Of a stretch of 61,606 nt of DNA, positions 1,077-38,816 are shown in pieces. The notes below the pieces were generated by a model. It was not told the DNA's origin and ran no database searches. It saw only the letters and a program-made list of their open reading frames with translations. A program made the position numbers and the translations under genes. Location of the stretch: assembly GCA_009778475.1 (NCBI GenBank), contig WRJS01000004.1, positions 1 to 61,606 on the forward strand, read 5' to 3'. The DNA comes from Kiritimatiellota bacterium (lineage in GTDB: Bacteria > Verrucomicrobiota > Kiritimatiellia > RFP12 > UBA1067). How positions within the stretch are numbered: position 1 is the first letter of the stretch; each line of letters starts with the position of its first letter.

Positions 1077-1790
1077 GGCTCTTGTCTAGTTAAGGATTAA
1101 ATTTGTAACACATTTTTGCATAGGATGTCAAACAAATCCTGCCCCTTGTTATTGAACCTGAACTCACACTCCTTGAGGTACAGCACGAACCTCGCCGAGG
1201 CGATGCCGTTGAACTTCGCCAGCCGCCGCTTGGCGTAGCTCCAGAAGCTCTCGATGCCGTTGACGTGGCACTTGCCCCGCGCGAACTCGTCCCGCGAGTG
1301 GAACACCCTGTAGTGGTCGTAGCCGTTCAGGATCAGCCCGTCGTACGCGCCCCACCCGTCGGTGTAGACCGTCGCGTTTTCCAGTATCCTGCCTTGGATA
1401 ATGGGCATCAGCTCCTCTTTGGAGCAGCTTCTGACGACGGTCAGGAACACCTGCCCGCCCCGCTTCAGCACGCCGAACACGGGCGTCTTGCCCGCCGCGC
1501 CGCGCCCCCGTTTCCCGCGAACCCTCCTCGCCCCGAAGTAGCTCTCGTCAAGCTCTATCTCCCCGGCAAAGGGCATCAGCGCCTGATGCTGGTACTCCAG
1601 GATGCGCTCGCGGAAAAGGGTGAAATAACGTTCCGCCGTGTGCCGGTTGTATCCCAGCAGCAGCGCCGTCTTGCCCGCCGTGATGTCCACGCAAAAGCAC
1701 ATCAGAATTTTTTTCACCCTGTACCTGCTTAATCGCCAACGTTTTTGCATAGTTTAAGGATACTCCAAAATCCTTAACTAGACAAGAGCC
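1077..1790 (-). mobile_element. IS1595-family insertion sequence (IS1016-like size, 714 bp)
   Basis: Perfect 22-bp TIRs ggctcttgtctagttaaggatt (1077-1098 / 1769-1790); 8-bp TSD tctgtgaa (1069-1076 / 1791-1798). Confidence 0.95.
1097..1750 (-). CDS. IS1595-family DDE transposase
   Basis: Motifs ELDESYFG, RGRGAAGKTPVFG, VYTDGW, HVNGIESFWS, LKECEFRFN. Confidence 0.95.
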   Translation of the reverse strand: MQKRWRLSRYRVKKILMCFCVDITAGKTALLLGYNRHTAERYFTLFRERILEYQHQALMPFAGEIELDESYFGARRVRGKRGRGAAGKTPVFGVLKRGGQVFLTVVRSCSKEELMPIIQGRILENATVYTDGWGAYDGLILNGYDHYRVFHSRDEFARGKCHVNGIESFWSYAKRRLAKFNGIASARFVLYLKECEFRFNNKGQDLFDILCKNVLQI

Positions 1791-5907: not shown

Positions 5908-5992
5908 ATCCGAAATCCCCAAGAGTTGATGCATCAATATACCGCAAGGCAGGTCACGCGCACAAGGACAAAAGAAACCGCGCACGGCAAAG

Positions 5993-6058
5993 GCGTGGCT
6001 CGCCGCCAACGCCACCAACATGGCGTGGGCGCTCACCCTGCCGACTCCCGACTCCTGA
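5993..6058 (+). pseudogene. Tiny remnant of polymorphic-protein cassette (AWLAANATNMAWALTLPTPDS*)
   Basis: Near-identical to the end of cassette 13602-14447 and to 10676-10725. Confidence 0.75.
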
Positions 6059-6085
6059 CTCCGAAATGCCCCCTGAAAAATGTGC

Positions 6086-6114
6086 TTGCATTTCCTTCGG
6101 GGGCAGTGTATCTT
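6086..6114 (+). promoter_or_regulatory. Putative sigma70 promoter of the cassette operon (copy at 14475-14503)
   Basis: TTGCAT-17bp-TATCTT, overlapping an imperfect hairpin 6067-6105. Confidence 0.45.
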
Positions 6115-6396
6115 TTACACCCTCGCCTCTTTTAAGGCGGGGGCGTAGCGCGGGGCCGGGGGCCATGCTTGCCGTTGTGTTTCAGGTTGTGCATCGCTGT
6201 GTATTGTCGCAGAGTCGGAATAGCCAAGTTGGCGCTTTTTTGAGTGCCTACCATTTTTGATGCGGGAGTATATGGGATGCGCCGCGCTATGTGGCGTATT
6301 CTGTGTCATGTGTTAATAGAGTTTTGGCTAACTCCGATTCTGCATGTGTGAGTATGCCACTTATGGTGAGTGGCGCGTAAAAAAACGGGAGGGGTT

Positions 6397-7254
6397 ATGG
6401 CGGAAAGGTTTATTGCAGTGGCGGAGTCGGTCGGGCGCGGGCTGGCGGTTGCGGGGTATGTGGTGGTGGCGGTCTCGCTGGCGGTGGCCTTCGCGGCGCG
6501 GCTGTGGGAGTCGGGGCTGGCGGGGGAGATGTGGCGGGAGTTCGTCGTGGCGGCGCGGAGGCGGGACGCGTGGGTGTGGGCGCTTATCACGGTGGGCCTG
6601 TCGCTGTGCGCGCAGAAGCGGGGCCCGGCGGAGTGGCTGGAGGAGTGGCGCGAAAGGGCGCAGGGCGGCGGGGCGCAAGCTGAGGGCGGGTTCCCCGGCG
6701 GGCCGCAGAGGGGCGGCGCCGAGGGCGGGGGGCGCGTGGTGTTCCAGTCGGGGGTGCCGCTGGCGGGGCCGCTGCCGGGCGTGGCGGTGCGGTGCGTGAT
6801 GCTCTCCTGCAACGGGGCGGCGGAGGACCTGGCGACGCTGCTGGACGCGCCGGAGGCCGCGCGGCTGAGGATGGCGGCGGAGGGCGGGCTGGAGCCTTGG
6901 ATGGACCCGGCGGAGGCGTCGCTGACGGGGCAGTTCGCGCTGCCGTCCTGGGGGCCTGAGATGTGGCGGGTGGTGACGGTTGACCTCGGGGGCGCCGTGC
7001 CGCTGGGCGACCTGCTCTTCGGGGACGCGGCGGGGCTCGGGGAGTGGGCGCGGCAGTGGCGGGGGGAGATCGCGGAGGCGGTGTTCTTCGACGACATCCC
7101 GGGCGACGGCGCGCGCGCGGGCGTGGCCAACTGGCTGGCGGCGCGGCGGGGCGCGGGGCGGCTCTACCCCGCGACGGCGGCCGAGCGCGGCGCGGCGATC
7201 GCGGCGGGCCTGAACTCCGGTGTTGACTGGGCGACGGTGATTATCGTAAGATAG
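6397..7254 (+). CDS. Membrane-anchored protein with LamG-like C-terminal motif, first gene of the cassette operon (copy 1)
   Basis: GGAGGGG RBS; two N-terminal hydrophobic segments; RQWRGEIAEAVFFD resembles the GDIAEVLVYD motif of gene 1-975; ends ATVIIVR. Confidence 0.6.
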   Translation: MAERFIAVAESVGRGLAVAGYVVVAVSLAVAFAARLWESGLAGEMWREFVVAARRRDAWVWALITVGLSLCAQKRGPAEWLEEWRERAQGGGAQAEGGFPGGPQRGGAEGGGRVVFQSGVPLAGPLPGVAVRCVMLSCNGAAEDLATLLDAPEAARLRMAAEGGLEPWMDPAEASLTGQFALPSWGPEMWRVVTVDLGGAVPLGDLLFGDAAGLGEWARQWRGEIAEAVFFDDIPGDGARAGVANWLAARRGAGRLYPATAAERGAAIAAGLNSGVDWATVIIVR

Positions 7255-7259
7255 GGGGC

Positions 7260-9545
7260 GTGATGAAGATGGAATATCCAATATCCAGCACGGAACATCC
7301 AATGTCCAAGTTGAATGCGCTCCGGGTGCGGCCCCGCGCCCGCGCCTCTCACCTTTTACCTTTCACCTCTCACCTTTTACCTTTTACATTTTACCTATTA
7401 CCTATCACCTATCACCTATTACTTCTCACCTGCTCCCTGCCGCCTCTGGCGGCCCTGGCGCAGGGCCTGCCGCAGTGGTACATCGACAAGGGCTGGCCCA
7501 CAGAGGACACCGTGGGCGACGGCATCCCGGACGAGTGGAAGCGGCGCACCTTCGCGCCGAGGGACGCGGACGGCAACTTCCTGCCGAGCGCGCACCTCGA
7601 CCGGGACAACGACGGCCTGACGGACCTGGAGGAGTTCTGGTACGGCAGCGACCCGCGCACCGCCTCGACCATGGGCGACTTCTGGCTCGACTCCGAGAAG
7701 CGCGCGCACGGCCTCGGCGCGTGGGGCAAGGTCACCTCGACCGTCTCCTTCGCGCAGTGGCAGGCGTGGTCCGGCCTTGACGAGGCCGCCTGGCGCCGCG
7801 CCACGCGCCCCTCCGCCGACGGCCTCACCGGCGCGTTCGCCGGCTTCGCCCTCAGCACCCAGCCCTACGCCGCCGAAGCGGGCACCGTGGACTTCTGGCT
7901 CGAGTACCGCGCCGACCGCCACACGCTCCTCACCCTCTCCGACGCGCTCGCGACGAACACGTTCCCGCTCGCCAAGGGCGAGGGCCGCGCGCGCCTGCGC
8001 GTCGCCTACGGCGGCCCCGCCGCGCTCACCATGGACCCCGCCCCCGGCACGCTCGCCGACACCCCCGGCGCCACCAACGGCCTGTGGCTCTGCGAGATGA
8101 AGGTCAAACCCTTCCGCCCCAACACCGTCGTATTCAACGACGGCGACACCCCGCCGCCCCCGCAAGGGGGTTTCGACAGCGTGGACGCCATCATCATCAC
8201 CGCCGCCCCCACCAACGCCGTCCACAGCCTCGAGCCCCCCGAGCCTACGCGCGACGGCCCGCCCACGCGCTGGCCCACCGTCACGCTCCTCCCCGGTTAC
8301 GTATCCCAAGGCGTGACCATGCTCAGCGACGGCTGGTACTGCGTCTCCGGCGACGCCTGCGGCGACTGCGCGTGGCCCACCAACGGCATGATCGAGGCCG
8401 CGGCCGGGATGCCCGCCAGCACCCTCGGCGCGACGCTTCCGGTCATCAGCAAGCAGGCCGCGTGGAATCTCCTCACGACGCCCGAGCTCAAATACGAGGT
8501 CACCGTCACCCAGAAGGTCTTCAGCGCGGGCTACCCGTCCCTCTTCGGCAGCTTCGCCTTCCGCGTCCGCCCCTGCGGCGCCCTCCACCACGGCCCCGAG
8601 GTGCGCGGCGCCGAGCACATCCTCAACCCCACCCACGAGCCCGGCCACTTCCCGACCACCACCTGCGGCGCCGCCGGGTGCCTCTGCTCCGGCGCGTCGC
8701 TCACCCACGTCGGCTTCGACCACGCCAAGGTCAACACGCGCAACCTCAACCACCCCGACGAGTCAGCGGAGGACAAGAAACATCTGCACTGCCTCGGCAT
8801 CATCTACAGCGGCAATACGACCAACCTGCTGGACTTCACCGAGAGTTTCGGGCTGGACATCACCAACCGCGTCAAGTGGGAGGTCAACGGGAAAACGCAG
8901 ACCGGACACACGCTGAAAATAGGCTCAGAACCCAAAGACCTCGACCCAAAAATTTTTCGCATTAAGCTACTGGAGAAAGAGTCGGGCGACGTGTGGGACA
9001 GGTTCATCCTCGTGGTCAACAACCGCAAGACGAAATCCGAATTCGATGGCTGGTATGACGGGAACAAAACGAACACGGCGTGGCTGGCGGAACTGCCTGC
9101 GGCGTATGTGGCGCTTTCGAACCGAGTCGGAAGCACGAGTTTCTATAACCCAGAGCCTTCGACTACAAATTTGTGGTGCGCTCCCGATGAGCCTGGACAA
9201 TATATGCACCATGCAGCAAAATGGCAAATGCGGTCAGAAAAAACACCCGGCAACCATGGACACCAGACATGCTATGATGACGCGGGGAAGATTATCCTTA
9301 ACGGGGTGAGCGCAGGAACGGCAGATTTTAGTTCTCCTAGATGGCATACCTTCAGACCACACGTCCGCGAAGATGTTGACCCCTTTGTCCGCGCCCTTCA
9401 ACTTGACGGAAACCCTTGTACTCGATCTTGGGACGCTCTGACTCATGCACTGATACATGACGGGGAAAACCTCGTCAAGTACCGTGAATGCCGTCCGGCA
9501 GTTCCCAACGATAAACCCATGTTAAATCCGGGGGAACTCCCGTAG
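7260..9545 (+). CDS. 761-aa secreted polymorphic protein: signal peptide, TSP3-like Ca-binding motifs, Cys/His-rich middle, variable His-rich AMOP-like tip (copy 1)
   Basis: ALA|Q cleavage site; DGIPDEW and DRDNDGLTDLEE; GC drops near 8880; tip homologous to the downstream cassettes. Confidence 0.8.
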   Translation: MMKMEYPISSTEHPMSKLNALRVRPRARASHLLPFTSHLLPFTFYLLPITYHLLLLTCSLPPLAALAQGLPQWYIDKGWPTEDTVGDGIPDEWKRRTFAPRDADGNFLPSAHLDRDNDGLTDLEEFWYGSDPRTASTMGDFWLDSEKRAHGLGAWGKVTSTVSFAQWQAWSGLDEAAWRRATRPSADGLTGAFAGFALSTQPYAAEAGTVDFWLEYRADRHTLLTLSDALATNTFPLAKGEGRARLRVAYGGPAALTMDPAPGTLADTPGATNGLWLCEMKVKPFRPNTVVFNDGDTPPPPQGGFDSVDAIIITAAPTNAVHSLEPPEPTRDGPPTRWPTVTLLPGYVSQGVTMLSDGWYCVSGDACGDCAWPTNGMIEAAAGMPASTLGATLPVISKQAAWNLLTTPELKYEVTVTQKVFSAGYPSLFGSFAFRVRPCGALHHGPEVRGAEHILNPTHEPGHFPTTTCGAAGCLCSGASLTHVGFDHAKVNTRNLNHPDESAEDKKHLHCLGIIYSGNTTNLLDFTESFGLDITNRVKWEVNGKTQTGHTLKIGSEPKDLDPKIFRIKLLEKESGDVWDRFILVVNNRKTKSEFDGWYDGNKTNTAWLAELPAAYVALSNRVGSTSFYNPEPSTTNLWCAPDEPGQYMHHAAKWQMRSEKTPGNHGHQTCYDDAGKIILNGVSAGTADFSSPRWHTFRPHVREDVDPFVRALQLDGNPCTRSWDALTHALIHDGENLVKYRECRPAVPNDKPMLNPGELP
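7346..7429 (+). repeat. 12 degenerate 7-bp tandem units (ctNtYac) encoding the signal-peptide hydrophobic region (copy at 15735-15818)
   Basis: ctctcac cttttac ctttcac ctctcac cttttac cttttac attttac ctattac ctatcac ctatcac ctattac ttctcac. Confidence 0.9.
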
Positions 9546-9569
9546 CCATTGATGAGAAAGGAAATCACT

Positions 9570-10340
9570 ATGAAACGATTGATTATTCTGTTTTTGCTTT
9601 CGGCGCAATCTGTTTGGGGGCAGAACCCCGTGCCGGATTTGTCTTGGACGTTCCAGTGGGGGACAAATACGGCCGGGATGCTCTTTGAGGACGCCGCTTT
9701 GGCCATGCCGGTCAAAGCGGTCATACGGGATGACATCAAAAGGGTTTACCAGCTTAACCCGCAGTCAAACGCAACATTCCGTTTGTACTTGCCAAGTGAG
9801 GAGGAACATGGGAAATACACAGGCGTTTTCCAGTTCGAGAGGTCAATGGCTTGCCCGAAGGACATCCACAGTTTGGATTACTGCATCTATGGGGGGACGA
9901 ACTATTACGCCATTACGGAATCCATCAGCACTATCTATTCTGAAAAAATAGCATTGACGAACCAGCATCATGCGGCAATCGGGAGCCTTTCCAACTTCCT
10001 GCACACTGTCAACCATGTGTCGGTTGGCAATACCACGCCAGTGGAATTTGCTCAAATGTGGTGGCGGTTCAAGAAAGGACGCGCGGGCGCGTTGGCTGAT
10101 GACACTGTTGAGAGTTTTACGGAGGGCATCCAATCCATGAGCGAAGACCGTTACTATTGCTTGTCGTTGCTTTCGGTTTGGGAAAGGCCGCCGTCATATT
10201 GGAGTGTGCCTTCCGCAAAACCGCTTGTGGTGGGTTGCACCATAAAAGCACTACCCAGAGCTGGCAACGGCAACTCCGACGGGATAGAAATGGATGCCGT
10301 GTATAAGGATGGGCAATGGCGGTTTGTCGCATGGGAATAG
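9570..10340 (+). CDS. Secreted partner (immunity-like) protein 1, copy 1
   Basis: AAGGA RBS; signal peptide MKRLIILFLLSAQSVWG|Q; C-terminal YKDGQWRF motif shared with paralogues. Confidence 0.8.
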   Translation: MKRLIILFLLSAQSVWGQNPVPDLSWTFQWGTNTAGMLFEDAALAMPVKAVIRDDIKRVYQLNPQSNATFRLYLPSEEEHGKYTGVFQFERSMACPKDIHSLDYCIYGGTNYYAITESISTIYSEKIALTNQHHAAIGSLSNFLHTVNHVSVGNTTPVEFAQMWWRFKKGRAGALADDTVESFTEGIQSMSEDRYYCLSLLSVWERPPSYWSVPSAKPLVVGCTIKALPRAGNGNSDGIEMDAVYKDGQWRFVAWE

Positions 10341-10349
10341 AATATCGTC

Positions 10350-11182
10350 CCAGCCATGCGGAGGAGCAATACCAGAAAACGGAGCATTGCCTCGGCATCG
10401 TGTGGGGCAACGGCGGCTCAACGAACCTCTTCAACCTGCTCTGCACCGACGGCTTCACCGACGACATCCGCACCAACCTCTACTTCACCTCGCAGGTCAA
10501 CGCCAAGGGCGCGAAGGCCGAGGTCGCAAAACACACCCTGCCCTTCGGCGCGAAACCCAAGGACATGGACCCCCGCATTTTCCACGTCGAACTCCGCCAC
10601 CGAGGGAACCCCGGCGAGGTTTTTGACAGGCTGTGGGTTGCCGTCAACGCACCCGAGACACTGGCGAGTTATAACGCATGGGTCGCCGCCAACGCCACCA
10701 ACATGGCCTGGACGCTTACCCTGCCACAGGTGTTTGAATCGATAGAAATCAAGAACGGAGAGGCAGTCCGTCCTGAGCCAAACCGCCCGCGCCAATAGGT
10801 AACCCCGAAAAGACTCAATTCATTCCTCCACCATGATGCCTCATTTGATATACGATCGTATCCCGTGGGTGATGACCACGGGCATCAGGCGACATACGAT
10901 GCCCACGGCAACGTGATCAAAAAGGGCGTTGCCGCAGGGACGGCCGACCGTGTTTCGACGGTGAATGAGGCGGGGTTCTCTGTGCCGAGTTTGGGGCATC
11001 AGACCCAAGACGTGCAACCGTTCATCCGCGCGTTGCAACTGGACGGGAACCCGTGTTTGAGGAAAACCAAGAGTGGGTTCATAGCAGACATAACCCGCCC
11101 CATGATTTATCAAGGAACGAATCTTACCAATTACATCGAGTGTCGCCCTGTGAGTCCTACAGGAATGCGCCCGAGACCATAA
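10350..11182 (+). pseudogene. Headless variant C-terminal cassette 2 with in-frame TAG at 10796-10798
   Basis: ORFs 10316-10798 and 10865-11182 are in the same frame; read-through gives LHH..IRS..HGHQATYD..AGTAD..H..DVQPFIRALQLDGNP..YIECRP. Confidence 0.85.
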
Positions 11183-11196
11183 GGAAGGAGAAAACC

Positions 11197-11943
11197 ATGA
11201 AACGTCTCATATCAGTGTGCTGTGTTAGTTTGCCCCTTTTGGGGTTAGCCCAGACGGCGCAGGTTCATATCGCAGGGAGTGACTATCCCGTTGTGTTCGC
11301 GGACATGAACCTTACAGGCAATGTCAAGCAACGTATCGTTGCTGAAATGACGACAGCCTTTTCACTCGGCTATCCCTTTGACGACCTGAAGGGGCAGGAA
11401 ATAGAAACGGGAGTCTTCCAGCTGAACGAAGACACGGCCATCTTCTGGGAAGAACAAAAGGCGGTTTCCCTTGCGGACAAAGGCAACGGAAAGAGCATAC
11501 AGGTCGGCAAGGCTTTGTCGGACAAATACCTGCAAGCCTTCGCATGGATGGACACCCATTCGAACACGGTTCAAAAAGCGCAGGCGTTTGTGGCGACACT
11601 GAACAGTCCTGACTTACTTTCAAAACCTTTTCCGGTATTGTTGGGCATGTTGCATTTTGACCCGTTATCGGACATGGAAGAGAATGATCCCCCCAGTGAT
11701 TTTAAGATACGGGGTATGTTCCAAAAGGATTTCCACCCTTATAAATATCTTGGAGTTACGGTATCGAGCTTCTATTTTAAACCGGTTCCAGAACTAGGGG
11801 GTAAGGAAATCCCCTTGCTTCTCCTTTTCGCCGTTGATAAATCAGGGCCGGTTCCACCAGCAACGGTATGTCCTCTCCCGATTGGCTTCTACAAAGGGAA
11901 GTGGGGGTTTGGCAACTTCCCTGCCCCGTTCAACATCCCCTGA
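11197..11943 (+). CDS. Secreted partner (immunity-like) protein 2
   Basis: AAGGAG RBS; MKRLISVCCVSLPLLGLA|Q; HSN.V.KA..FV and PIGFYKGKWGFG motifs. Confidence 0.8.
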   Translation: MKRLISVCCVSLPLLGLAQTAQVHIAGSDYPVVFADMNLTGNVKQRIVAEMTTAFSLGYPFDDLKGQEIETGVFQLNEDTAIFWEEQKAVSLADKGNGKSIQVGKALSDKYLQAFAWMDTHSNTVQKAQAFVATLNSPDLLSKPFPVLLGMLHFDPLSDMEENDPPSDFKIRGMFQKDFHPYKYLGVTVSSFYFKPVPELGGKEIPLLLLFAVDKSGPVPPATVCPLPIGFYKGKWGFGNFPAPFNIP

Positions 11944-11944
11944 T

Positions 11945-12037
11945 TATCTACGCCCTTGCCTGTGTCAAGGCAGTTGCCTTGACCAGTATTTGGAATGCCG
12001 CCCTGCCACACCGACAGGGACACGCCCAAGACAGTAA
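11945..12037 (+). pseudogene. Extreme C-terminal stub of a cassette tip (LRPCLCQG...YLECRPATPTGTRPRQ*)
   Basis: Homologous to tip ends; 11951-12032 closely matches 20427-20508. Confidence 0.75.
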
Positions 12038-12049
12038 AGGAGAAGGACA

Positions 12050-12811
12050 ATGAAGAAACTGCATTATGTTGTTGCCATGCTATGCTTACCCTTTTGGGGG
12101 CAAGCGCAAACAGTACAGGTTCGTATAGCAGAAACAAACTATCCTGCCATATTTACCGATGCTAGCCTGTCGGTAACGAACCAACAGCGTATCGCCGCTG
12201 ACCTCACGCTCGTCTTTTCTCTAGCCTCTTCATTTGATAGGCTGAAGGGGAGGTTGGGAGGCGAGGAAGGGGTTTTCGAGCCGAACATCGACGTGTCGAT
12301 GTTCTGTTTGAGCGAGTGGAACGATGGCATTCTCCTTATTGACCAAGGCAATCAAAAAAGTGTACGGGTACAGAAAACGGCATCGGACTTATACCTTCGT
12401 TCCTTCGCCCTGATAGAGGCTCATTCAAACGCCGTCCGGGCGGCGCATGAGTTTGTGACGATGCTGAACCACACCAACCTGCTCGCACAATCAATACAGG
12501 TACTTCGGAATTTATATCACGTTGCGCCGTTATCGGACATAGAAGAAGAAGATTTTACCGATGATGAAGTCTTGAGACGTGTCGCAGAAAGACAAAATTA
12601 CAAATACCCTGAGATTAGCGTGCGGAATTTCTTTTTACAACGAATTCCCGAGCTCGATGATGCGGAAGTGCTTGTAACATGCCTTTACATGATTGAGAAA
12701 GCAGATCCGTCACTGGAAAAAATCTATGGCATTCCGATTGATTTTTATAAAGGGAGATGGGGATTGGGACGGTCTCCCTTGGACATACAGAGGTCTGAAA
12801 TCGTGGAGTAG
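12050..12811 (+). CDS. Secreted partner (immunity-like) protein 3
   Basis: Signal peptide ..FWGQA|Q; AHSNAVRAAHEFV; PIDFYKGRWGLG. Confidence 0.85.
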   Translation: MKKLHYVVAMLCLPFWGQAQTVQVRIAETNYPAIFTDASLSVTNQQRIAADLTLVFSLASSFDRLKGRLGGEEGVFEPNIDVSMFCLSEWNDGILLIDQGNQKSVRVQKTASDLYLRSFALIEAHSNAVRAAHEFVTMLNHTNLLAQSIQVLRNLYHVAPLSDIEEEDFTDDEVLRRVAERQNYKYPEISVRNFFLQRIPELDDAEVLVTCLYMIEKADPSLEKIYGIPIDFYKGRWGLGRSPLDIQRSEIVE

Positions 12812-12816
12812 CGACC

Positions 12817-13596
12817 ATGAAGAAGCTACACCGTATCGTATTGTTGTCTTGTGCAGCTTTGCCGTTTTTGGGGCAAGCCCAGACCGCACAAGTCCATATC
12901 GCAGGAAGCGCCTACCCTGTGCTGTTCGCAGACACGAACCTTACGAGTAAAGTTAAGCAACGTATTGCTGACGACTTGACCATCGCCTTCTCTCCTGCCC
13001 CTTCGTTTGAGAGGGCAATGGGGGGGGATGAAGTGGAGGCGACAACTCCTTTGCCGGGCGGAGACACTGCCGTCACTAGTTTTATAGGGCGTGATTATTG
13101 GGAAGGGGCTTTCGGACCGAGCCGTAACCATTCCATGCTCTGTTTCGACGAGATTCGGGAGGGTATTTACCTTGTGGACTACAACGGCCAGAAAAGCGTG
13201 CGGATAGATAAGGTCGCGTCCAGTAATTACCTGCACACATTCGCGCTGATGAAGGCGCACTCAAACGCTGTCGCAAAAGCGCATGAGTTTGTGGAGGCTC
13301 TAAAGAACCCCAACCTGGCTTCAGAGCCTCTGCAAGTGCTGAAAGATATGCACCATGCGTTGCCGTTGAAAGAGACGGACGACGACACCTACCGCGGGTT
13401 CGCGAGAGAGACGCAGAAATGCAAAAACCTCGAGCTTTGCGCGCTGAACTTCTCTTTGCAGATGTGTCCCGAACTCAGCGACCAGAAGGTGCTTGTGGCG
13501 GTGCAATTTTCACTGTACCAGTCCGACCCGTCAAAGCTCCACGGTTTTCCGATTATCTTCCATAACGGCAGATGGGGGTTCGGGAAATACTGGTGA
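12817..13596 (+). CDS. Secreted partner (immunity-like) protein 4
   Basis: Signal peptide ..FLGQA|Q; AHSNAVAKAHEFV; PIIFHNGRWGFG. Confidence 0.85.
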   Translation: MKKLHRIVLLSCAALPFLGQAQTAQVHIAGSAYPVLFADTNLTSKVKQRIADDLTIAFSPAPSFERAMGGDEVEATTPLPGGDTAVTSFIGRDYWEGAFGPSRNHSMLCFDEIREGIYLVDYNGQKSVRIDKVASSNYLHTFALMKAHSNAVAKAHEFVEALKNPNLASEPLQVLKDMHHALPLKETDDDTYRGFARETQKCKNLELCALNFSLQMCPELSDQKVLVAVQFSLYQSDPSKLHGFPIIFHNGRWGFGKYW

Positions 13597-13601
13597 CGAC
13601 C

Positions 13602-14447
13602 ATGGGGGCTAAAACCGTGCTCGGCGGCGACGGCTGGTTCTGCATCTCCGACGCCTACTGCGTTTCGGGCTGCTGCGCGTGGCCCACCTACGGCATGATC
13701 GGATGCGACGCGCTCACCCTCTCCATGCACAACCTGCAACCGGCCGACCCCATCATGCCCAAGCAGGACGCGTGGCAGATATTCTGCGACCGCCAGCCCT
13801 GCGCCGAGTGCGTCATCACGCAGACGCTCAGCCACGCGGCCTTCCCCCCCATCTACAGCAAGGTCATCTTCCGCGTCCGCCAGTGCGGCGCGCTAAGCGA
13901 CGGCGTCCGCGGCGCGGAGAGCGACCCCGCCCACACCCCCGCCTACTACCCCCACGCCGCCTGCCACGGCATCCAGTGCGAATGCCTCGGCGCCCCCGTC
14001 TGGCTCGTCGGCTTCGACCACGCAAAGGTCAACACGCGCAACCTCTCCGTCATCGCCAGCCACGCGGAGGAACAATACCAAAACACGAGCCACTGCCTCG
14101 GCATCGTGTGGGGCGACGGCGGCTCGACGAACCTCTTCAACCTGCTCTGCACCGACGGCTTCACTGACGACATCCGCACCAACCTCTACTTCACCTCGCA
14201 GGTCAACGCCAAGGGAGCGAAGGCCGAAGTTCAAAACCACATCCTGCCCTTCGGCGCGAAACCAAAAGACATGGAGCCACGGATTTTCCACGTCGAGCTG
14301 CGCCACCGCGAGAAAGGCGCCAACGTCCTCGACAGGCTCTGGGTCACGGTCAACTCCCTCGAAACGCTCACGAATTACAACAACTGGGTCGCCGCCAACG
14401 CCACCAACATGGCGTGGGCGCTCACCCTGGCGCCCCCCGACTCCTGA
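13602..14447 (+). pseudogene. Headless and tipless cassette: variant Cys-rich middle region of the polymorphic protein
   Basis: DGWFC..CAWPTYGMI..FRVRQCGAL..VGFDHAKVNTRNL align to the 761-aa protein; truncated at NMAWALTL. Confidence 0.8.
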
Positions 14448-14785
14448 CTCCGAAATGCCCCCTGAAAAATGTGCTTGCATTTCCTTCGGGGGCAGTGTAT
14501 CTTTTACACCCTCGCCTCTTTTAAGGCGGGGGCGTAGCGCGGGGCCGGGGGCCATGCTTGCCGTTGTGTTTCAGGTTGTGCATCGCTGTGTATTGTCGCA
14601 GAGTCGGAATAGCCAAGTTGGCGCTTTTTTGAGTGCCTACCATTTTTGATGCGGGAGTATATGGGATGCGCCGCGCTATGTGGCGTATTCTGTGTCATGT
14701 GTTAATAGAGTTTTGGCTAACTCCGATTCTGCATGTGTGAGTATGCCACTTATGGTGAGTGGCGCGTAAAAAAACGGGAGGGGTT

Positions 14786-15643
14786 ATGGCGGAAAGGTTT
14801 ATTGCAGTGGCGGAGTCGGTCGGGCGCGGGCTGGCGGTTGCGGGGTATGTGGTGGTGGCGGTCTCGCTGGCGGTGGCCTTCGCGGCGCGGCTGTGGGAGT
14901 CGGGGCTGGCGGGGGAGATGTGGCGGGAGTTCGTCGTGGCGGCGCGGAGGCGGGACGCGTGGGTGTGGGCGCTTATCACGGTGGGCCTGTCGCTGTGCGC
15001 GCAGAAGCGGGGCCCGGCGGAGTGGCTGGAGGAGTGGCGCGAAAGGGCGCAGGGCGGCGGGGCGCAAGCTGAGGGCGGGTTCCCCGGCGGGCCGCAGAGG
15101 GGCGGCGCCGAGGGCGGGGGGCGCGTGGTGTTCCAGTCGGGGGTGCCGCTGGCGGGGCCGCTGCCGGGCGTGGCGGTGCGGTGCGTGATGCTCTCCTGCA
15201 ACGGGGCGGCGGAGGACCTGGCGACGCTGCTGGACGCGCCGGAGGCCGCGCGGCTGAGGATGGCGGCGGAGGGCGGGCTGGAGCCTTGGATGGACCCGGC
15301 GGAGGCGTCGCTGACGGGGCAGTTCGCGCTGCCGTCCTGGGGGCCTGAGATGTGGCGGGTGGTGACGGTTGACCTCGGGGGCGCCGTGCCGCTGGGCGAC
15401 CTGCTCTTCGGGGACGCGGCGGGGCTCGGGGAGTGGGCGCGGCAGTGGCGGGGGGAGATCGCGGAGGCGGTGTTCTTCGACGACATCCCGGGCGACGGCG
15501 CGCGCGCGGGCGTGGCCAACTGGCTGGCGGCGCGGCGGGGCGCGGGGCGGCTCTACCCCGCGACGGCGGCCGAGCGCGGCGCGGCGATCGCGGCGGGCCT
15601 GAACTCCGGTGTTGACTGGGCGACGGTGATTATCGTAAGATAG
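14786..15643 (+). CDS. Membrane-anchored LamG-like protein, copy 2
   Basis: Translation identical to 6397-7254. Confidence 0.6.
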   Translation: MAERFIAVAESVGRGLAVAGYVVVAVSLAVAFAARLWESGLAGEMWREFVVAARRRDAWVWALITVGLSLCAQKRGPAEWLEEWRERAQGGGAQAEGGFPGGPQRGGAEGGGRVVFQSGVPLAGPLPGVAVRCVMLSCNGAAEDLATLLDAPEAARLRMAAEGGLEPWMDPAEASLTGQFALPSWGPEMWRVVTVDLGGAVPLGDLLFGDAAGLGEWARQWRGEIAEAVFFDDIPGDGARAGVANWLAARRGAGRLYPATAAERGAAIAAGLNSGVDWATVIIVR

Positions 15644-15648
15644 GGGGC

Positions 15649-17934
15649 GTGATGAAGATGGAATATCCAATATCCAGCACGGAACATCCAATGTCCAAGT
15701 TGAATGCGCTCCGGGTGCGGCCCCGCGCCCGCGCCTCTCACCTTTTACCTTTCACCTCTCACCTTTTACCTTTTACATTTTACCTATTACCTATCACCTA
15801 TCACCTATTACTTCTCACCTGCTCCCTGCCGCCTCTGGCGGCCCTGGCGCAGGGCCTGCCGCAGTGGTACATCGACAAGGGCTGGCCCACAGAGGACACC
15901 GTGGGCGACGGCATCCCGGACGAGTGGAAGCGGCGCACCTTCGCGCCGAGGGACGCGGACGGCAACTTCCTGCCGAGCGCGCACCTCGACCGGGACAACG
16001 ACGGCCTGACGGACCTGGAGGAGTTCTGGTACGGCAGCGACCCGCGCACCGCCTCGACCATGGGCGACTTCTGGCTCGACTCCGAGAAGCGCGCGCACGG
16101 CCTCGGCGCGTGGGGCAAGGTCACCTCGACCGTCTCCTTCGCGCAGTGGCAGGCGTGGTCCGGCCTTGACGAGGCCGCCTGGCGCCGCGCCACGCGCCCC
16201 TCCGCCGACGGCCTCACCGGCGCGTTCGCCGGCTTCGCCCTCAGCACCCAGCCCTACGCCGCCGAAGCGGGCACCGTGGACTTCTGGCTCGAGTACCGCG
16301 CCGACCGCCACACGCTCCTCACCCTCTCCGACGCGCTCGCGACGAACACGTTCCCGCTCGCCAAGGGCGAGGGCCGCGCGCGCCTGCGCGTCGCCTACGG
16401 CGGCCCCGCCGCGCTCACCATGGACCCCGCCCCCGGCACGCTCGCCGACACCCCCGGCGCCACCAACGGCCTGTGGCTCTGCGAGATGAAGGTCAAACCC
16501 TTCCGCCCCAACACCGTCGTATTCAACGACGGCGACACCCCGCCGCCCCCGCAAGGGGGTTTCGACAGCGTGGACGCCATCATCATCACCGCCGCCCCCA
16601 CCAACGCCGTCCACAGCCTCGAGCCCCCCGAGCCTACGCGCGACGGCCCGCCCACGCGCTGGCCCACCGTCACGCTCCTCCCCGGTTACGTATCCCAAGG
16701 CGTGACCATGCTCAGCGACGGCTGGTACTGCGTCTCCGGCGACGCCTGCGGCGACTGCGCGTGGCCCACCAACGGCATGATCGAGGCCGCGGCCGGGATG
16801 CCCGCCAGCACCCTCGGCGCGACGCTTCCGGTCATCAGCAAGCAGGCCGCGTGGAATCTCCTCACGACGCCCGAGCTCAAATACGAGGTCACCGTCACCC
16901 AGAAGGTCTTCAGCGCGGGCTACCCGTCCCTCTTCGGCAGCTTCGCCTTCCGCGTCCGCCCCTGCGGCGCCCTCCACCACGGCCCCGAGGTGCGCGGCGC
17001 CGAGCACATCCTCAACCCCACCCACGAGCCCGGCCACTTCCCGACCACCACCTGCGGCGCCGCCGGGTGCCTCTGCTCCGGCGCGTCGCTCACCCACGTC
17101 GGCTTCGACCACGCCAAGGTCAACACGCGCAACCTCAACCACCCCGACGAGTCAGCGGAGGACAAGAAACATCTGCACTGCCTCGGCATCATCTACAGCG
17201 GCAATACGACCAACCTGCTGGACTTCACCGAGAGTTTCGGGCTGGACATCACCAACCGCGTCAAGTGGGAGGTCAACGGGAAAACGCAGACCGGACACAC
17301 GCTGAAAATAGGCTCAGAACCCAAAGACCTCGACCCAAAAATTTTTCGCATTAAGCTACTGGAGAAAGAGTCGGGCGACGTGTGGGACAGGTTCATCCTC
17401 GTGGTCAACAACCGCAAGACGAAATCCGAATTCGATGGCTGGTATGACGGGAACAAAACGAACACGGCGTGGCTGGCGGAACTGCCTGCGGCGTATGTGG
17501 CGCTTTCGAACCGAGTCGGAAGCACGAGTTTCTATAACCCAGAGCCTTCGACTACAAATTTGTGGTGCGCTCCCGATGAGCCTGGACAATATATGCACCA
17601 TGCAGCAAAATGGCAAATGCGGTCAGAAAAAACACCCGGCAACCATGGACACCAGACATGCTATGATGACGCGGGGAAGATTATCCTTAACGGGGTGAGC
17701 GCAGGAACGGCAGATTTTAGTTCTCCTAGATGGCATACCTTCAGACCACACGTCCGCGAAGATGTTGACCCCTTTGTCCGCGCCCTTCAACTTGACGGAA
17801 ACCCTTGTACTCGATCTTGGGACGCTCTGACTCATGCACTGATACATGACGGGGAAAACCTCGTCAAGTACCGTGAATGCCGTCCGGCAGTTCCCAACGA
17901 TAAACCCATGTTAAATCCGGGGGAACTCCCGTAG
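15649..17934 (+). CDS. 761-aa secreted polymorphic protein, copy 2
   Basis: Translation identical to 7260-9545. Confidence 0.8.
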   Translation: MMKMEYPISSTEHPMSKLNALRVRPRARASHLLPFTSHLLPFTFYLLPITYHLLLLTCSLPPLAALAQGLPQWYIDKGWPTEDTVGDGIPDEWKRRTFAPRDADGNFLPSAHLDRDNDGLTDLEEFWYGSDPRTASTMGDFWLDSEKRAHGLGAWGKVTSTVSFAQWQAWSGLDEAAWRRATRPSADGLTGAFAGFALSTQPYAAEAGTVDFWLEYRADRHTLLTLSDALATNTFPLAKGEGRARLRVAYGGPAALTMDPAPGTLADTPGATNGLWLCEMKVKPFRPNTVVFNDGDTPPPPQGGFDSVDAIIITAAPTNAVHSLEPPEPTRDGPPTRWPTVTLLPGYVSQGVTMLSDGWYCVSGDACGDCAWPTNGMIEAAAGMPASTLGATLPVISKQAAWNLLTTPELKYEVTVTQKVFSAGYPSLFGSFAFRVRPCGALHHGPEVRGAEHILNPTHEPGHFPTTTCGAAGCLCSGASLTHVGFDHAKVNTRNLNHPDESAEDKKHLHCLGIIYSGNTTNLLDFTESFGLDITNRVKWEVNGKTQTGHTLKIGSEPKDLDPKIFRIKLLEKESGDVWDRFILVVNNRKTKSEFDGWYDGNKTNTAWLAELPAAYVALSNRVGSTSFYNPEPSTTNLWCAPDEPGQYMHHAAKWQMRSEKTPGNHGHQTCYDDAGKIILNGVSAGTADFSSPRWHTFRPHVREDVDPFVRALQLDGNPCTRSWDALTHALIHDGENLVKYRECRPAVPNDKPMLNPGELP

Positions 17935-17958
17935 CCATTGATGAGAAAGGAAATCACT

Positions 17959-18729
17959 ATGAAACGATTGATTATTCTGTTTTTGCTTTCGGCGCAATCT
18001 GTTTGGGGGCAGAACCCCGTGCCGGATTTGTCTTGGACGTTCCAGTGGGGGACAAATACGGCCGGGATGCTCTTTGAGGACGCCGCTTTGGCCATGCCGG
18101 TCAAAGCGGTCATACGGGATGACATCAAAAGGGTTTACCAGCTTAACCCGCAGTCAAACGCAACATTCCGTTTGTACTTGCCAAGTGAGGAGGAACATGG
18201 GAAATACACAGGCGTTTTCCAGTTCGAGAGGTCAATGGCTTGCCCGAAGGACATCCACAGTTTGGATTACTGCATCTATGGGGGGACGAACTATTACGCC
18301 ATTACGGAATCCATCAGCACTATCTATTCTGAAAAAATAGCATTGACGAACCAGCATCATGCGGCAATCGGGAGCCTTTCCAACTTCCTGCACACTGTCA
18401 ACCATGTGTCGGTTGGCAATACCACGCCAGTGGAATTTGCTCAAATGTGGTGGCGGTTCAAGAAAGGACGCGCGGGCGCGTTGGCTGATGACACTGTTGA
18501 GAGTTTTACGGAGGGCATCCAATCCATGAGCGAAGACCGTTACTATTGCTTGTCGTTGCTTTCGGTTTGGGAAAGGCCGCCGTCATATTGGAGTGTGCCT
18601 TCCGCAAAACCGCTTGTGGTGGGTTGCACCATAAAAGCACTACCCAGAGCTGGCAACGGCAACTCCGACGGGATAGAAATGGATGCCGTGTATAAGGATG
18701 GGCAATGGCGGTTTGTCGCATGGGAATAG
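17959..18729 (+). CDS. Secreted partner (immunity-like) protein 1, copy 2
   Basis: Translation identical to 9570-10340. Confidence 0.8.
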   Translation: MKRLIILFLLSAQSVWGQNPVPDLSWTFQWGTNTAGMLFEDAALAMPVKAVIRDDIKRVYQLNPQSNATFRLYLPSEEEHGKYTGVFQFERSMACPKDIHSLDYCIYGGTNYYAITESISTIYSEKIALTNQHHAAIGSLSNFLHTVNHVSVGNTTPVEFAQMWWRFKKGRAGALADDTVESFTEGIQSMSEDRYYCLSLLSVWERPPSYWSVPSAKPLVVGCTIKALPRAGNGNSDGIEMDAVYKDGQWRFVAWE

Positions 18730-18738
18730 AATATCGTC

Positions 18739-19580
18739 CCAGCCATGCGGAGGAGCAATACCAGAAAACGGAGCATTGCCTCGGCATCGTGTGGGGCAAC
18801 GGCGGCTCAACGAACCTCTTCAACCTGCTCTGCACCGACGGCTTCACCGACGACATCCGCACCAACCTCTACTTCACCTCGCAGGTCAACGCCAAGGGCG
18901 CGAAGGCCGAGGTCGCAAACCACACCCTGCCCTTCGGCGCGAAACCCAAGGACATGGACCCCCGCATTTTCCACGTCGAGCTCCGCCACCGAGAGAGGGA
19001 AGAGATTTTCGACAGGCTCTGGGTTGTCATCAACGCCCCCGAAACTCACGCCAACTACACCAACCGGGTCGCCATCAACTCTACCAATATGGCGTGGACG
19101 CTCACCCTGCCCCCGCCGTTTGCTTCAATCATAGTTAATGGCAACACCCCTGTCGATCCAGAACCACCGATTGGTTTTTGGAATGATTCTGGCGTTTGGC
19201 ATAAGCCTGAACCCAAGAACACGTATCTTCATCATAATGCTCCGTTTGAAATGCGGTCTAAACCTGTGACAGGAGGACACGGGCATCAGGCAATGTACGA
19301 TACGAACGGTCTCTTAATTGAAACTACCATCGCGGCAGGGACGGCTGATTTTGTTTCGCCTGACGGTCCCAATAGCGCACGGCGTCACAGGAATTTCGAT
19401 GTTTACCCGTACATCCGTGCTTTGCAGCTTGACGGGAATCCAGTCCGGTCGGTAAGTGCCGCCATCGGTCTTGGGGTCGTGGACGCCCCAACCAATCTCG
19501 ACCGCCCCTGCATTTATCAGGGAGATTACACAGACTCATACATCGAAAGACGTCCAGTCTTGCCAACAGGAAAGAGGTAG
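18739..19580 (+). pseudogene. Headless but frame-intact variant C-terminal cassette 3
   Basis: Shared ~250-bp anchor, then a distinct tip: YLHH..MRS..HGHQAMYD..AGTADFVSP..H..DVYPYIRALQLDGNP..YIERRP. Confidence 0.85.
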
Positions 19581-19581
19581 C

Positions 19582-20352
19582 ATGAAAACAAAACCACTAA
19601 CGTTCATTCTTTTTTCAGCCGCAATGATGTTTCACGCCCCGCATTGCGCGGGGCAGAGCAACGTTGTGTATTACGGGGCAAACTCCAACGCGCTAAATGT
19701 CGCATTCGCAGACACGAGCCTTTCCGCAAAGGCGAAGGCCGCTATCACAGCTGACTTGAATCTCTGTTTACGGGAATGGGGGAAAACTAGTGACTTGCGT
19801 CTTGGGGACAAAAACACTGCCGGACAACTTTACAATTGGAAAACAAGCCCGCATTATCCAGAAGGGGTTATTGATTTCCCTGAAAACATTACCTCGGACG
19901 GGGCATCCGGCGTTGCCTTGCAGATAACCAAGGAACTTAGCGATGCCTACACCAATGCGTTCGCGTTTGTTGCTGCAAACAGTAATATTGTCGCCGCCGC
20001 TTATAAGTTTGTGACGCTCATTTCGTCAAACGGCTTTGCCGCCTCTGTCACACCTGCCAGCATAACGGACTATGTCTTGGTGAAAAAGTACAAGCCTCAA
20101 GACTATATTGCCAACTATCAAGAACTCATGGAGGGATGTTTCATTGCACCGAAGTGGCATCAGCCGAGCGTGCTGGGGTTTCGCCATAGCGGGGCAGACC
20201 CTTCCCTTGCAAACTTGTGGCTGGTTATCCCTGCCTATACTCCGCCGGAACCCCTCGCTGGTTCCGTCGGGGAATGGTTGGGATTAGCGGCTATATGGCA
20301 TGATGGGAAATGGAAGCTCTGTTTCTGGGGATGGGACGATAGCCCACGGTGA
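19582..20352 (+). CDS. Secreted partner (immunity-like) protein 5
   Basis: Starts 2 nt after the cassette stop; MKTKPLTFILFSAA..CAG|Q; FADTSL..K..I.ADL; NSNIV.AAYKFV; WHDGKWKL. Confidence 0.8.
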   Translation: MKTKPLTFILFSAAMMFHAPHCAGQSNVVYYGANSNALNVAFADTSLSAKAKAAITADLNLCLREWGKTSDLRLGDKNTAGQLYNWKTSPHYPEGVIDFPENITSDGASGVALQITKELSDAYTNAFAFVAANSNIVAAAYKFVTLISSNGFAASVTPASITDYVLVKKYKPQDYIANYQELMEGCFIAPKWHQPSVLGFRHSGADPSLANLWLVIPAYTPPEPLAGSVGEWLGLAAIWHDGKWKLCFWGWDDSPR

Positions 20353-20364
20353 ACACTCGAGGCA

Positions 20365-20579
20365 GGTTGCAACTTGACGGGAATCCATGCTTGCCGAAAA
20401 CAAAGGACATACCCCAAACTCTGTTGCGCCCTTGCCTGTGTCAAGGCGGGCATCTGAACCAATATCTGGAATGCCGCCCTGCCACGCCGACAGGGACACG
20501 CCCAAGACCCATAAGGAGAAAGACCATGAAAAAGCCACATTGTATAGCATCGTTACTGTGTTGCGTCTGCTTAAGCTGA
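20365..20579 (+). pseudogene. Tip stub (LQLDGNPC...YLECRP) fused to a 17-codon partner-gene stub (MKKPHC..., 20526-20579)
   Basis: Homology to 11034-11182 and 11951-12032; stub resembles the MKKLH starts of partners 3 and 4. Confidence 0.7.
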
Positions 20580-20662
20580 GAACACGATGAACACGAAGAT
20601 GATGACACTCACGCTTGATGTATTATTTCTGATGCTATAACGGAAAATGTGATGGAGGTATT

Positions 20663-21622: not shown

Positions 21623-21623
21623 T

Positions 21624-22025
21624 GTGGCAGTAAACTATCTTGCCAAAATCACGTTGACTAATGCACATCCGACGATGATAAGCGGGTTGTCTAATTTCTT
21701 GGCACAAGTCTCCATTTGTTCGCCAGGCAACACGACGGATGAGGCATTCACAAGCTTGCATTGGTCGCTGGAGAAGAACGCCCCGATGACGATGCAGGAC
21801 TGGGGAGAACGAAGTATCCAAGGGCATAAGACGGACGCGTTAGATGTCACCTACGGATTCCCATCGCTTTTAGATTTTTCCGTGATCAATCTGGAAGGGG
21901 GAGGGACTTTCATTGCTTGCACTTTGCGCCATGCGATTCCCAAGGACAAGCCAACCCAGCCTAAGCTCGGTGACGTTTTCATATATACGGGCAACCAATG
22001 GTATTTCGCTGATTGGAAGTTTTAG
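21624..22025 (+). pseudogene. C-terminal half of a partner-1-like protein
   Basis: KITLTN..LSNFL..GNTT..YTGNQWYFADW vs partner 1 KIALTN..LSNFL..GNTT..YKDGQWRFVAW. Confidence 0.7.
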
Positions 22026-38775: not shown

Positions 38776-38816
38776 CGCACACGGCTGAGTGTCCCGTAAC
38801 GGCGAAAGGGCAAAGC

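Follow-up and report, generated by a model that had tools for sequence, protein, structure and literature searches.

An AMOP-superfamily domain as the exchangeable tip of a probable polymorphic toxin in a Kiritimatiellota bacterium

A 761-residue protein of a Kiritimatiellota bacterium ends in a segment of 167 residues that recurs, in divergent form, in cassettes downstream of its gene, and the question raised by this locus is what that exchangeable segment (the tip) is and what it does. The window analysed here is the whole of a 61,606-nucleotide stretch (contig WRJS01000004.1 of assembly GCA_009778475.1, positions 1 to 61,606). An original prediction, made from the letters of the window, had taken the tip for a bacterial effector or adhesin resembling the AMOP domain of animals, with the cysteines of that domain replaced by conserved histidines. 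This interpretation was upheld in part: the kinship with AMOP is borne out, and the replacement of cysteine by histidine is not. The tip belongs, as a divergent bacterial form, to the AMOP fold and superfamily. It lacks the four disulfides of the animal domain and sits in a locus that works like a polymorphic toxin locus, yet it falls short of both the Pfam cut-off and the disulfide pattern that mark AMOP. The reading favoured here, to which I assign a probability of about 0.65, is that the locus encodes a polymorphic toxin exported by Sec, whose AMOP-type tip would act on the envelope, together with cognate immunity proteins. The features needed first are the two copies of the main gene and the tip itself:

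7260..9545, plus strand: full-length gene, copy 1, an open reading frame of 761 residues.
9042-9542 in frame, plus strand: AMOP-like tip of copy 1, residues 595-761 (the last 167).
15649..17934, plus strand: full-length gene, copy 2, encoding an identical 761-residue protein, with its tip at 17431-17931.

The start originally flagged for the tip, 9040, lies one base out of frame, and the in-frame tip starts at 9042. Animal AMOP (PF03782; isthmin-1 and isthmin-2, SUSD2, MUC4, Mesh; structure 9C6T) is described as an adhesion-associated extracellular module with eight invariant cysteines in four strictly conserved disulfides (PMC9818725; PMC12000326; both cited here and below from parts of their text). 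Its first structure dates from 2025 and was called a distinct fold, in which a half-barrel of antiparallel strands forms the centre and helical regions lie at the N-terminus, in the middle and at the C-terminus (PMC12000326).

Searching Pfam with the tip gave one match, to AMOP, with an expect value (E) of 0.055 and 14 bits, aligning residues 3-89 with positions 7-90 of the 143-position profile. Relatives of the tip were then considered in three alignments: A2 with 22 rows (the tips of 20 of 24 collected relatives plus the two intact window tips), A4 with 36 rows from a search of 1.84 billion proteins, and A6 with 31 rows, to which five cysteine-containing bacterial tips had been added. AMOP was the only Pfam family matched by more than one relative, with four of the 22 A2 members matching at E ≤ 10 (best 2.1e-4) and eight of the 36 A4 members at E ≤ 1 (best 9.1e-5). 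Against 177,635 distinct PDB sequences, the A2 profile gave a single match at E ≤ 10, to human isthmin-1 (ISM1; chain 9c6t_A, from the TSR-AMOP structure of this protein) at E 0.0023, and the same protein led the results for the A4 profile (6.9e-6, next 0.12) and the A6 profile (2.5e-8, next 0.22). The profile alignments place LP, RS, CY, LIT, AGT and H...DV.P in register with ISM1, and Y...RP pairs with it in a second, non-significant stretch only.

The motifs that had been listed as common to the main tip and the two cassette tips (W..LP, HH.A...RS, HGHQ..YD..G..I...AGTAD, H...DV.P, ALQLDGNP and Y.E.RP) were all recovered in an alignment of the three, in which cassette 1 was read with X at its stop codon; the second, lone W of the list was not, this position being an in-frame TAG in cassette 1. 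Each cassette tip shares 38-39% identity with the main tip, and because the three are homologues, the motifs that they share are not independent evidence.

Stronger links came from other genomes. Of 301 sampled genomes from the phylum, 17 matched the A4 profile, and none of the 12 from the same family as the source genome did, a patchy distribution; in the source genome (3.97 Mb assembled, 91% complete) a profile search found the tip confined to this window. Three of the matched places pass the Pfam AMOP cut-off (33.9, 33.1 and 41.4 bits in the genome scan). A fourth, G007:C3:239513-239848, reached 30.7 bits in a search of five genomes and was missed in the search of 301, so that the Pfam AMOP counts for the 301 genomes are lower bounds. 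The cysteine motifs known from animal AMOP (LP.CP.C, HPG....RS/RT, QQC.Y, AGTPD) are present in these bridge tips, which match the window-family profile at E 1e-24 to 1e-30 and score 28.2-40.2 bits against Pfam AMOP as whole proteins (cut-off 25). BLASTP connected the window tip directly to two of them, at E 4e-11 (29% identity over 125 residues) and E 2e-16 (31% over 145 residues). These BLASTP and profile links to Pfam-passing tips place the window tip, in diverged form, in the superfamily of the bona fide AMOP domains.

An AlphaFold2 model of the tip (predicted local distance difference test score, pLDDT, 85.7; predicted template modelling score 0.81) shows helices at the N-terminus, then a core of strands, a single long helix in the middle and a helix at the C-terminus, and this order agrees with AMOP as described for ISM1 (PMC12000326). 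Comparison of the model with 48,161 PDB representative chains by VIA-align returned two chains only at Z ≥ 2, namely 9c6t_B (Z 7.9, root-mean-square deviation 3.3 Å over 122 residues, model residues 1-162 on chain residues 297-446) and, at Z 2.1, an unrelated chain. In Foldseek the top two rows were again 9c6t chains (E 0.012, probability 0.98; E 0.033, probability 0.80), followed by a row at E 0.9, and the best match had a template modelling (TM) score of 0.48. The comparison with the isthmin-1 domain, proposed as a check of the resemblance, thus turned out in its favour, with the ISM1 AMOP domain as the only match of the model, and an AMOP fold is predicted for the tip.

The likeness could in principle be due to chance or convergence, with a tip of unrelated fold, as the E 0.055 of the window tip alone against Pfam AMOP, the best Foldseek values (E 0.012, TM 0.48) and the missing disulfides might suggest. 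This explanation is however close to refuted and very improbable: E improved each time the profile was widened (0.0023, then 6.9e-6, then 2.5e-8) with ISM1 as the sole credible match throughout, BLASTP led directly to Pfam-passing AMOP domains, ISM1 was the sole structural match (Z 7.9 versus 2.1), and the motifs, including LP, RS, CY, AGT and H...DV.P, occur in the same order. Profile E-values, BLASTP links and structure match take the likeness beyond chance, and homology of the tip with the AMOP superfamily is close to certain. The resemblance claimed at the outset hence stands, with AMOP as the only recurrent Pfam family, isthmin-1 as the one PDB match, a matching fold and Pfam-passing bacterial intermediates, and the profile similarity on which it depended is significant (family profiles reach ISM1 at E 2.5e-8).

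The substitution of histidine for cysteine did not survive the alignments with ISM1 and with a Pfam-positive bacterial AMOP domain, in which the AMOP cysteine columns hold A21, V23, Q62, T76 and C77 of the window tip and its histidines lie elsewhere. C77 is the only cysteine of the window tip in such a column, and it is a cysteine in 60 of 147 representatives (chosen at ≤50% identity, the sample behind all family-wide residue counts given here). Aligned sequences carry one to five cysteines, none of the alignments of 22, 36 or 31 sequences contains an invariant cysteine column, and the animal disulfides C1-C8, C3-C6, C4-C9 and C5-C7 (PMC12000326; PMC9818725) are missing in the window tip. In many A6 relatives (for example P0060, P0113, P0155, P0158, P0163, P0164, P0171, L033 and L035) a cysteine just ahead of the conserved Trp co-occurs with one close to the very end of the protein, and neither is present in the window tips. 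Judged by its positions in the alignment, this pair suggests a retained disulfide that would tie the C-terminus to the core.

Beyond the cysteines, the tip and animal AMOP share the order of their motifs (W..LP, H(P/H).A...RS, Q..Y..G.LI..G..AGT, H...DV.P, Y...RP), the predicted fold and an extracytoplasmic setting. They differ in their polar residues, as the aligned ISM1 shares the Arg and the His and Asp of H...DV.P and lacks H56, Q75, D95 and the ALQLDGNP segment, and in their context: the tip forms an exchangeable unit at the C-terminus and is paired with a partner gene, whereas animal AMOP is an internal module of mosaic adhesion proteins.

Five invariant histidines and several aspartates had been read as a metal or catalytic site. 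In the close family the histidines are indeed invariant or nearly so (H56, H72 and H107 in all 22 aligned tips, H57 and H74 in at least 90%), but family-wide this holds for H56 (146/147) and H107 (147/147) only, with H74 found in 127 and H72 in 114 of the 147 representatives. Position 57 is His in 63 of them and Pro in 77, the latter being the AMOP-like 'HP' form. Other residues are better conserved: Q75, D111, D122, Y147 and R151 are present in all 147, R64 in 146 and D95 in 144. The family-wide (near-)invariant set is accordingly H56, R64, Q75, D95, H107, D111, D122, Y147 and R151, and an enzymatic site built from these His, Asp, Arg, Gln and Tyr side chains is a possibility rated at slightly under even odds. 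A metallopeptidase of the LAS/M23 type was considered and rejected: the likeness consisted of an HxH plus HxxxD pattern only, H72 and H74 are not invariant, and the fold is absent from the structure matches, an absence that does not by itself exclude it.

The 761-residue protein consists, in order, of an N-terminal hydrophobic leader, one bacterial TSP3-type repeat (TSP3_bac, E 0.0021, below the cut-off), a cysteine-rich middle, a cassette-type module and the AMOP-like tip. Its signal peptide was assigned by eye, and the relatives P0030 and P0053 have short leaders ahead of the same PQWY motif. Ahead of the tip lies a junction region, at whose 5' end the main gene and the downstream cassettes become alignable; this 5' end is the conserved junction, and many short relatives likewise carry the region ahead of their tip. 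Both cassette open reading frames lack the N-terminal 494 residues of the main protein. The parts of the array that contain junction or tip sequence are as follows:

8742..9041, plus strand: junction region of about 100 residues (residues 495-594), ahead of the tip and shared with the cassettes according to the alignment.
10316..11182, plus strand: orphan cassette 1, junction region and AMOP-like tip (profile E 2.4e-56), with an in-frame TAG at 10796-10798.
18705..19580, plus strand: orphan cassette 2, 291 residues, intact (profile E 3.7e-60), with its tip at 19056-19577.
11942..12028, plus strand: remnant of the 3' end of a tip, profile positions 136-164 (E 7.8e-4).
20367..20501, plus strand: remnant of the 3' end of a tip, profile positions 121-163 (E 2.8e-11).
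13572..14447, plus strand: truncated gene piece with the middle part and the cassette region (profile match at 14310-14453, E 6.5e-6).
6047..10530: exact direct repeat, copy 1, 4,484 bp, without a mismatch to 14436-18919.
14436..18919: exact direct repeat, copy 2, 100% identical to copy 1.

The repeat contains the whole main gene, the immA gene introduced below and the 5' part of a cassette, and the truncated piece stops at the left-hand boundary of repeat copy 2, shortly after a tip has opened with W..LP. In P0002, a relative with 100% identity, the longest contig has 4,484 bases, the size of the repeat, which would fit an assembly break at the repeat edges. The TAG of cassette 1 occupies a column that holds an invariant Trp in the other 22 aligned tips, and this in-frame stop keeps the stored tip, in its present form, from being translated. 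Recoding of TAG was considered as an explanation and is unlikely, since the main gene and cassette 2 themselves terminate at TAG.

Immediately downstream of every tip in the window lies a gene encoding a protein of about 250 residues with a Sec-type leader (recognised by eye). These imm genes form one divergent family with five paralogues at 20-45% identity, in which immB, immC and immD are mutually 35-45% identical, immE is 25-29% identical to these three, and immA about 21-23%:

9570..10340, plus strand: immA, 256 residues, directly after the tip, candidate cognate immunity gene with an alternative TTG start at 9549 and 20 homologues.
17959..18729, plus strand: immA, copy 2, within the exact repeat.
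11197..11943, plus strand: immB, paralogue, directly after cassette 1.
12050..12811, plus strand: immC, paralogue.
12817..13596, plus strand: immD, paralogue.
19582..20352, plus strand: immE, paralogue, directly after cassette 2.
21624..22025, plus strand: piece of 133 residues resembling the C-terminal half of immA (39% identity over 59 residues, E 2e-9 to 4e-9).

The same pairing was found in 18 related loci, all from metagenome-assembled genomes, which in all but one case are labelled Kiritimatiellia or Kiritimatiellaeota, Lentisphaerae or Lentisphaerales, or Verrucomicrobia. There, an imm-family gene comes next after 24 of the 28 tips that reach the profile end; one tip has no room for such a gene, and three are not followed by one. 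Arrays of tips and imm genes also occur in the loci L007, L009, L015, L016 and L018. The locus thus displays the hallmarks of a polymorphic toxin system in its downstream gene, which is adjacent to the tip and varies with it, and in the orphan tip-plus-partner cassettes that follow. Neither the tip nor its partners carry a Pfam Tox, Ntox or Imm family, an NCBIfam family or any other named toxin or immunity domain, and the immA family itself matched nothing in Pfam or NCBIfam; the only NCBIfam row was a sub-threshold match of Amuc_1099 to the N-terminal TSP3 region of the main protein (13.9 versus 50 bits).

Polymorphic toxin systems are known to include immunity proteins with an NTF2 fold (Zhang et al. 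2012, PMC3482391, likewise cited from part of its text). The model of immA (pLDDT 92) gave many weak NTF2- or cystatin-like matches over its C-terminal half (residues ~110-239), the best at Z 5.3 and, in Foldseek, E 0.099. This half of immA may be of the kind seen in Imm-NTF2 and Imm-NTF2-2 of that survey, and its gene likewise lies directly after a tip; an additional N-terminal alpha/beta half and a Sec leader set immA apart from them. Complex prediction for a tip with its downstream protein gave 0.49, 0.48 and 0.02 with one control at 0.33, which weighs neither for nor against binding.

The wider family extends this picture. The tip family comprises 871 clusters (50% identity) at E ≤ 0.001 and 429 at E ≤ 1e-10, and in 142 of 147 representatives, on proteins of 124 to 1978 residues, no more than 15 residues separate the end of the domain from the C-terminus. 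Among 56 long relatives, the N-terminal parts contain TSP3_bac in 29, a Binary_toxB calcium-binding domain in eight and NIDO in two, and further domains found on relatives are Ig-like, CarboxypepD_reg, TPR, transglutaminase-like, fn3, PKD, Laminin_G_3 and Glucodextran_B. A variable C-terminal domain is thus carried on differing N-terminal scaffolds and joined to them at a conserved junction, as is characteristic of polymorphic toxins. In an ESM Atlas cluster that is mostly bacterial, 26% of the members bear the label AMOP.

Two relatives deserve separate mention. P0150 (1352 residues) has NIDO (PF06119, 35.3 bits, over the cut-off) upstream of its AMOP-like tip, as has one other of the 56; NIDO and AMOP co-occur in animal MUC4-type proteins. 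P0153 (196 residues) joins an N-terminal match to a TIR domain of the CAP12/Pycsar type (E 2.6e-15) to the C-terminal two thirds of a tip, and may be a chimeric or miscalled open reading frame.

RHS tips are toxins in the cases studied. Three bridge proteins, of 1696, 1957 and 544 residues, end in AMOP after RHS repeats (RHS_repeat at E 4e-45, 4e-10 and 1.8e-5; AMOP at 29.8, 30.7 and 28.2 bits, respectively). The fourth bridge AMOP (40.2 bits) directly follows a sequence that I take, by eye, to be the RHS core end motif. The proteins lie in other genomes of the phylum:

L034, 3775-8862, minus strand: RHS/AMOP protein.
L035, 2709-8579, minus strand: RHS/AMOP protein.
L036, 1796-3427, plus strand: RHS/AMOP protein.
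L033, 2-721, plus strand: probable RHS/AMOP protein.

The genes that follow them encode small multi-pass membrane proteins or a lipoprotein (judged by eye), a second and unrelated set of candidate immunity proteins. Compared with the Rhs/YD-repeat polymorphic toxins (PMC3482391), the window locus has in common a variable C-terminal domain after a conserved junction, a partner gene directly downstream, orphan tip-plus-partner cassettes and a patchy distribution, and in related genomes the AMOP domain is itself the tip of RHS proteins. Unlike them, the window protein has no RHS repeats, its scaffold being a TSP3-type repeat and unassigned regions.

A variable surface adhesin or ligand-binding tip offers another account. 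Here the tip would bind a molecule on the surface of a host or prey, the role supposed for the animal domain, the cassettes would provide antigenic or specificity variation, and the partners would be co-factors or chaperones instead of immunity proteins. The description of animal AMOP as adhesion-associated and extracellular (PMC9818725; PMC12000326), the surface-type domains at the N-termini of relatives (TSP3_bac in 29 of 56, NIDO in two of 56, and also Ig-like, fn3, PKD and Laminin_G_3) and the lack of a classical toxin-trafficking domain in the window protein are all in its favour. Yet variation of an adhesin has no need for a divergent partner gene of its own beside each tip variant, which is the signature of toxin and immunity (24 of 28 tips in the 18 loci), and tandem partner-gene arrays, displaced tip remnants and the presence of Pfam-positive AMOP as cargo of RHS proteins in relatives likewise count against it. 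The (near-)invariance of nine polar residues over 147 representatives is, moreover, seen more typically in an active site than in a binding surface that varies. An adhesin is therefore judged unlikely, and of the two functions originally put forward, effector or adhesin, the genomic context favours an effector with immunity genes.

Given a toxin with immunity proteins, a target in the envelope is somewhat better than an even chance. A location outside the cytoplasm is indicated because the candidate protectors in both branches, the imm family and the neighbours of the RHS-AMOP proteins, are envelope proteins, and it agrees with the extracellular nature of the domain in animals. The proposed sequence of events is as follows. 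The 761-residue protein would be exported, with its leader, calcium-binding TSP3-type repeat and cysteine-rich region presenting the tip. The site of action would be extracytoplasmic, in the envelope of a competitor, where the tip would probably work through the polar site of H56, R64, Q75, D95, H107, D111, D122, Y147 and R151, and the secreted protein of about 250 residues encoded directly downstream would protect the producer. The silent downstream cassettes, each with junction, tip and its own immunity gene, could be swapped in by recombination at the conserved junction. With regard to export, no match to a type VI secretion system sheath gene was found in the source genome at 91% completeness, and nine secretin matches were, seven of them over the cut-off; both results are compatible with export of the Sec and type II secretion system kind, a route listed in the survey (PMC3482391). 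The window contains a secretin-domain match at 39630-39980 (open reading frame 38772-40142), at 27.6 bits just over the cut-off.

Several results weigh against the toxin reading or the homology beneath it. The 14 bits of the window tip miss the Pfam AMOP gathering cut-off of 25, and cassette 2 and both pieces of cassette 1 have no Pfam AMOP match at all. Foldseek returned no row at E ≤ 0.001, and a Z below 8 can, by the caveat of the structure tool itself, reflect a common arrangement. The scaffold domains of the long relatives (TSP3_bac, Ig-like, TPR, transglutaminase-like, NIDO) are also typical of surface proteins. RHS_repeat was found neither in the window protein at E ≤ 10, which contains no other classical toxin-trafficking domain either, nor in any of the 56 long relatives at E ≤ 0.001. 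The genes after the RHS-AMOP tips are not of the window partner family, and the NTF2-like match of that partner is weak (Z 5.3; E 0.099). The variation of the HxH motif, H72 (114/147) and H74 (127/147), weakens the case for a simple His-rich metal site, and no enzymatic or biochemical activity is known for animal AMOP according to the cited parts of PMC12000326 and PMC9818725.

The conserved residues leave room for a further account, in which the tip is a secreted enzyme of ordinary metabolism, acting for example on host or algal glycans, with the partner as its dedicated inhibitor or helper and without any antibacterial role. Fusion of relatives to Glucodextran_B, CarboxypepD_reg and Laminin_G_3 would suit such an enzyme as well as the invariant polar residues do, and tip protein and partner both appear Sec-exported (by eye). 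Orphan and nonsense-interrupted cassettes, remnants and the patchy distribution (17/301; 0/12) are nevertheless better matched by a conflict system, as are the encapsulation by RHS proteins in relatives and the position of the locus beside an IS1595-type transposase and a helicase-nuclease gene. A metabolic enzyme consequently ranks as quite unlikely, somewhat below the adhesin, and a polymorphic toxin with its immunity proteins is retained as the preferred reading.

The neighbouring genes just mentioned lie upstream on the opposite strand, and two reading frames without a family match are listed with them:

1097-1750, minus strand: IS1595-type transposase.
1858-6036, minus strand: helicase-like protein of 1391 residues with a C-terminal MTES_1575 restriction-endonuclease-like domain.
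6370..7254: open reading frame upstream of the main gene (P0173), without a family match.
20663-21622, plus strand: multi-pass membrane protein of 319 residues without a family match, at the end of the cassette array and before the piece at 21624-22025.

As the helicase-nuclease gene and the transposase adjoin it, the toxin locus appears to occupy a variable or mobile region. G+C content is 0.52-0.59 over the tips, cassettes and imm genes (8001-14000 and 18001-22000) and 0.62-0.69 elsewhere in the window.

A literature search found no paper linking AMOP to bacterial toxins, RHS proteins or polymorphic toxins (partly at the level of titles and abstracts), and none pairing the name of the phylum with 'polymorphic toxin'. 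The word 'AMOP' is absent from the first 300,000 of the 357,715 characters of the 2012 toxin survey (PMC3482391), additional files apart. Databases may already list bacterial 'AMOP' proteins without comment, because Pfam passes some bacterial tips and the ESM Atlas labels 26% of its cluster. To my knowledge, little work exists on polymorphic toxin systems in bacteria of the Planctomycetes-Verrucomicrobia-Chlamydiae (PVC) group.

What the results mean is that an AMOP domain is widespread in bacteria, that its disulfides are dispensable, and that it is placed where interbacterial toxins sit, including as cargo of RHS proteins. This suggests that the animal AMOP domain is related to bacterial toxin modules. 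That animal AMOP (isthmins, SUSD2, MUC4, Mesh) descends from the tip of a bacterial polymorphic toxin, with the bacterial forms keeping an ancestral envelope-directed enzymatic or ligand-binding activity, is a bolder proposal and on present evidence a doubtful one. Teneurins have been proposed to derive from YD/RHS toxins by the same route. The ancestral site would be the core of R64, H107, D111, Y147 and R151, much of which is still present in the aligned ISM1 (the Arg, His and Asp, with Y..RP in a non-significant stretch only). Were this descent true, AMOP, a domain without a known biochemical function, would gain a testable one, and the occurrence of NIDO beside AMOP-like tips in two of 56 relatives would hint that the NIDO-AMOP pairing of mucin-type proteins predates animals. 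Should the toxicity proposed here prove true, the locus would add a new type of toxin domain and a new family of secreted immunity proteins to the PVC group, along with a set of invariant residues on which activity may depend and a concrete hypothesis for the original role of AMOP.

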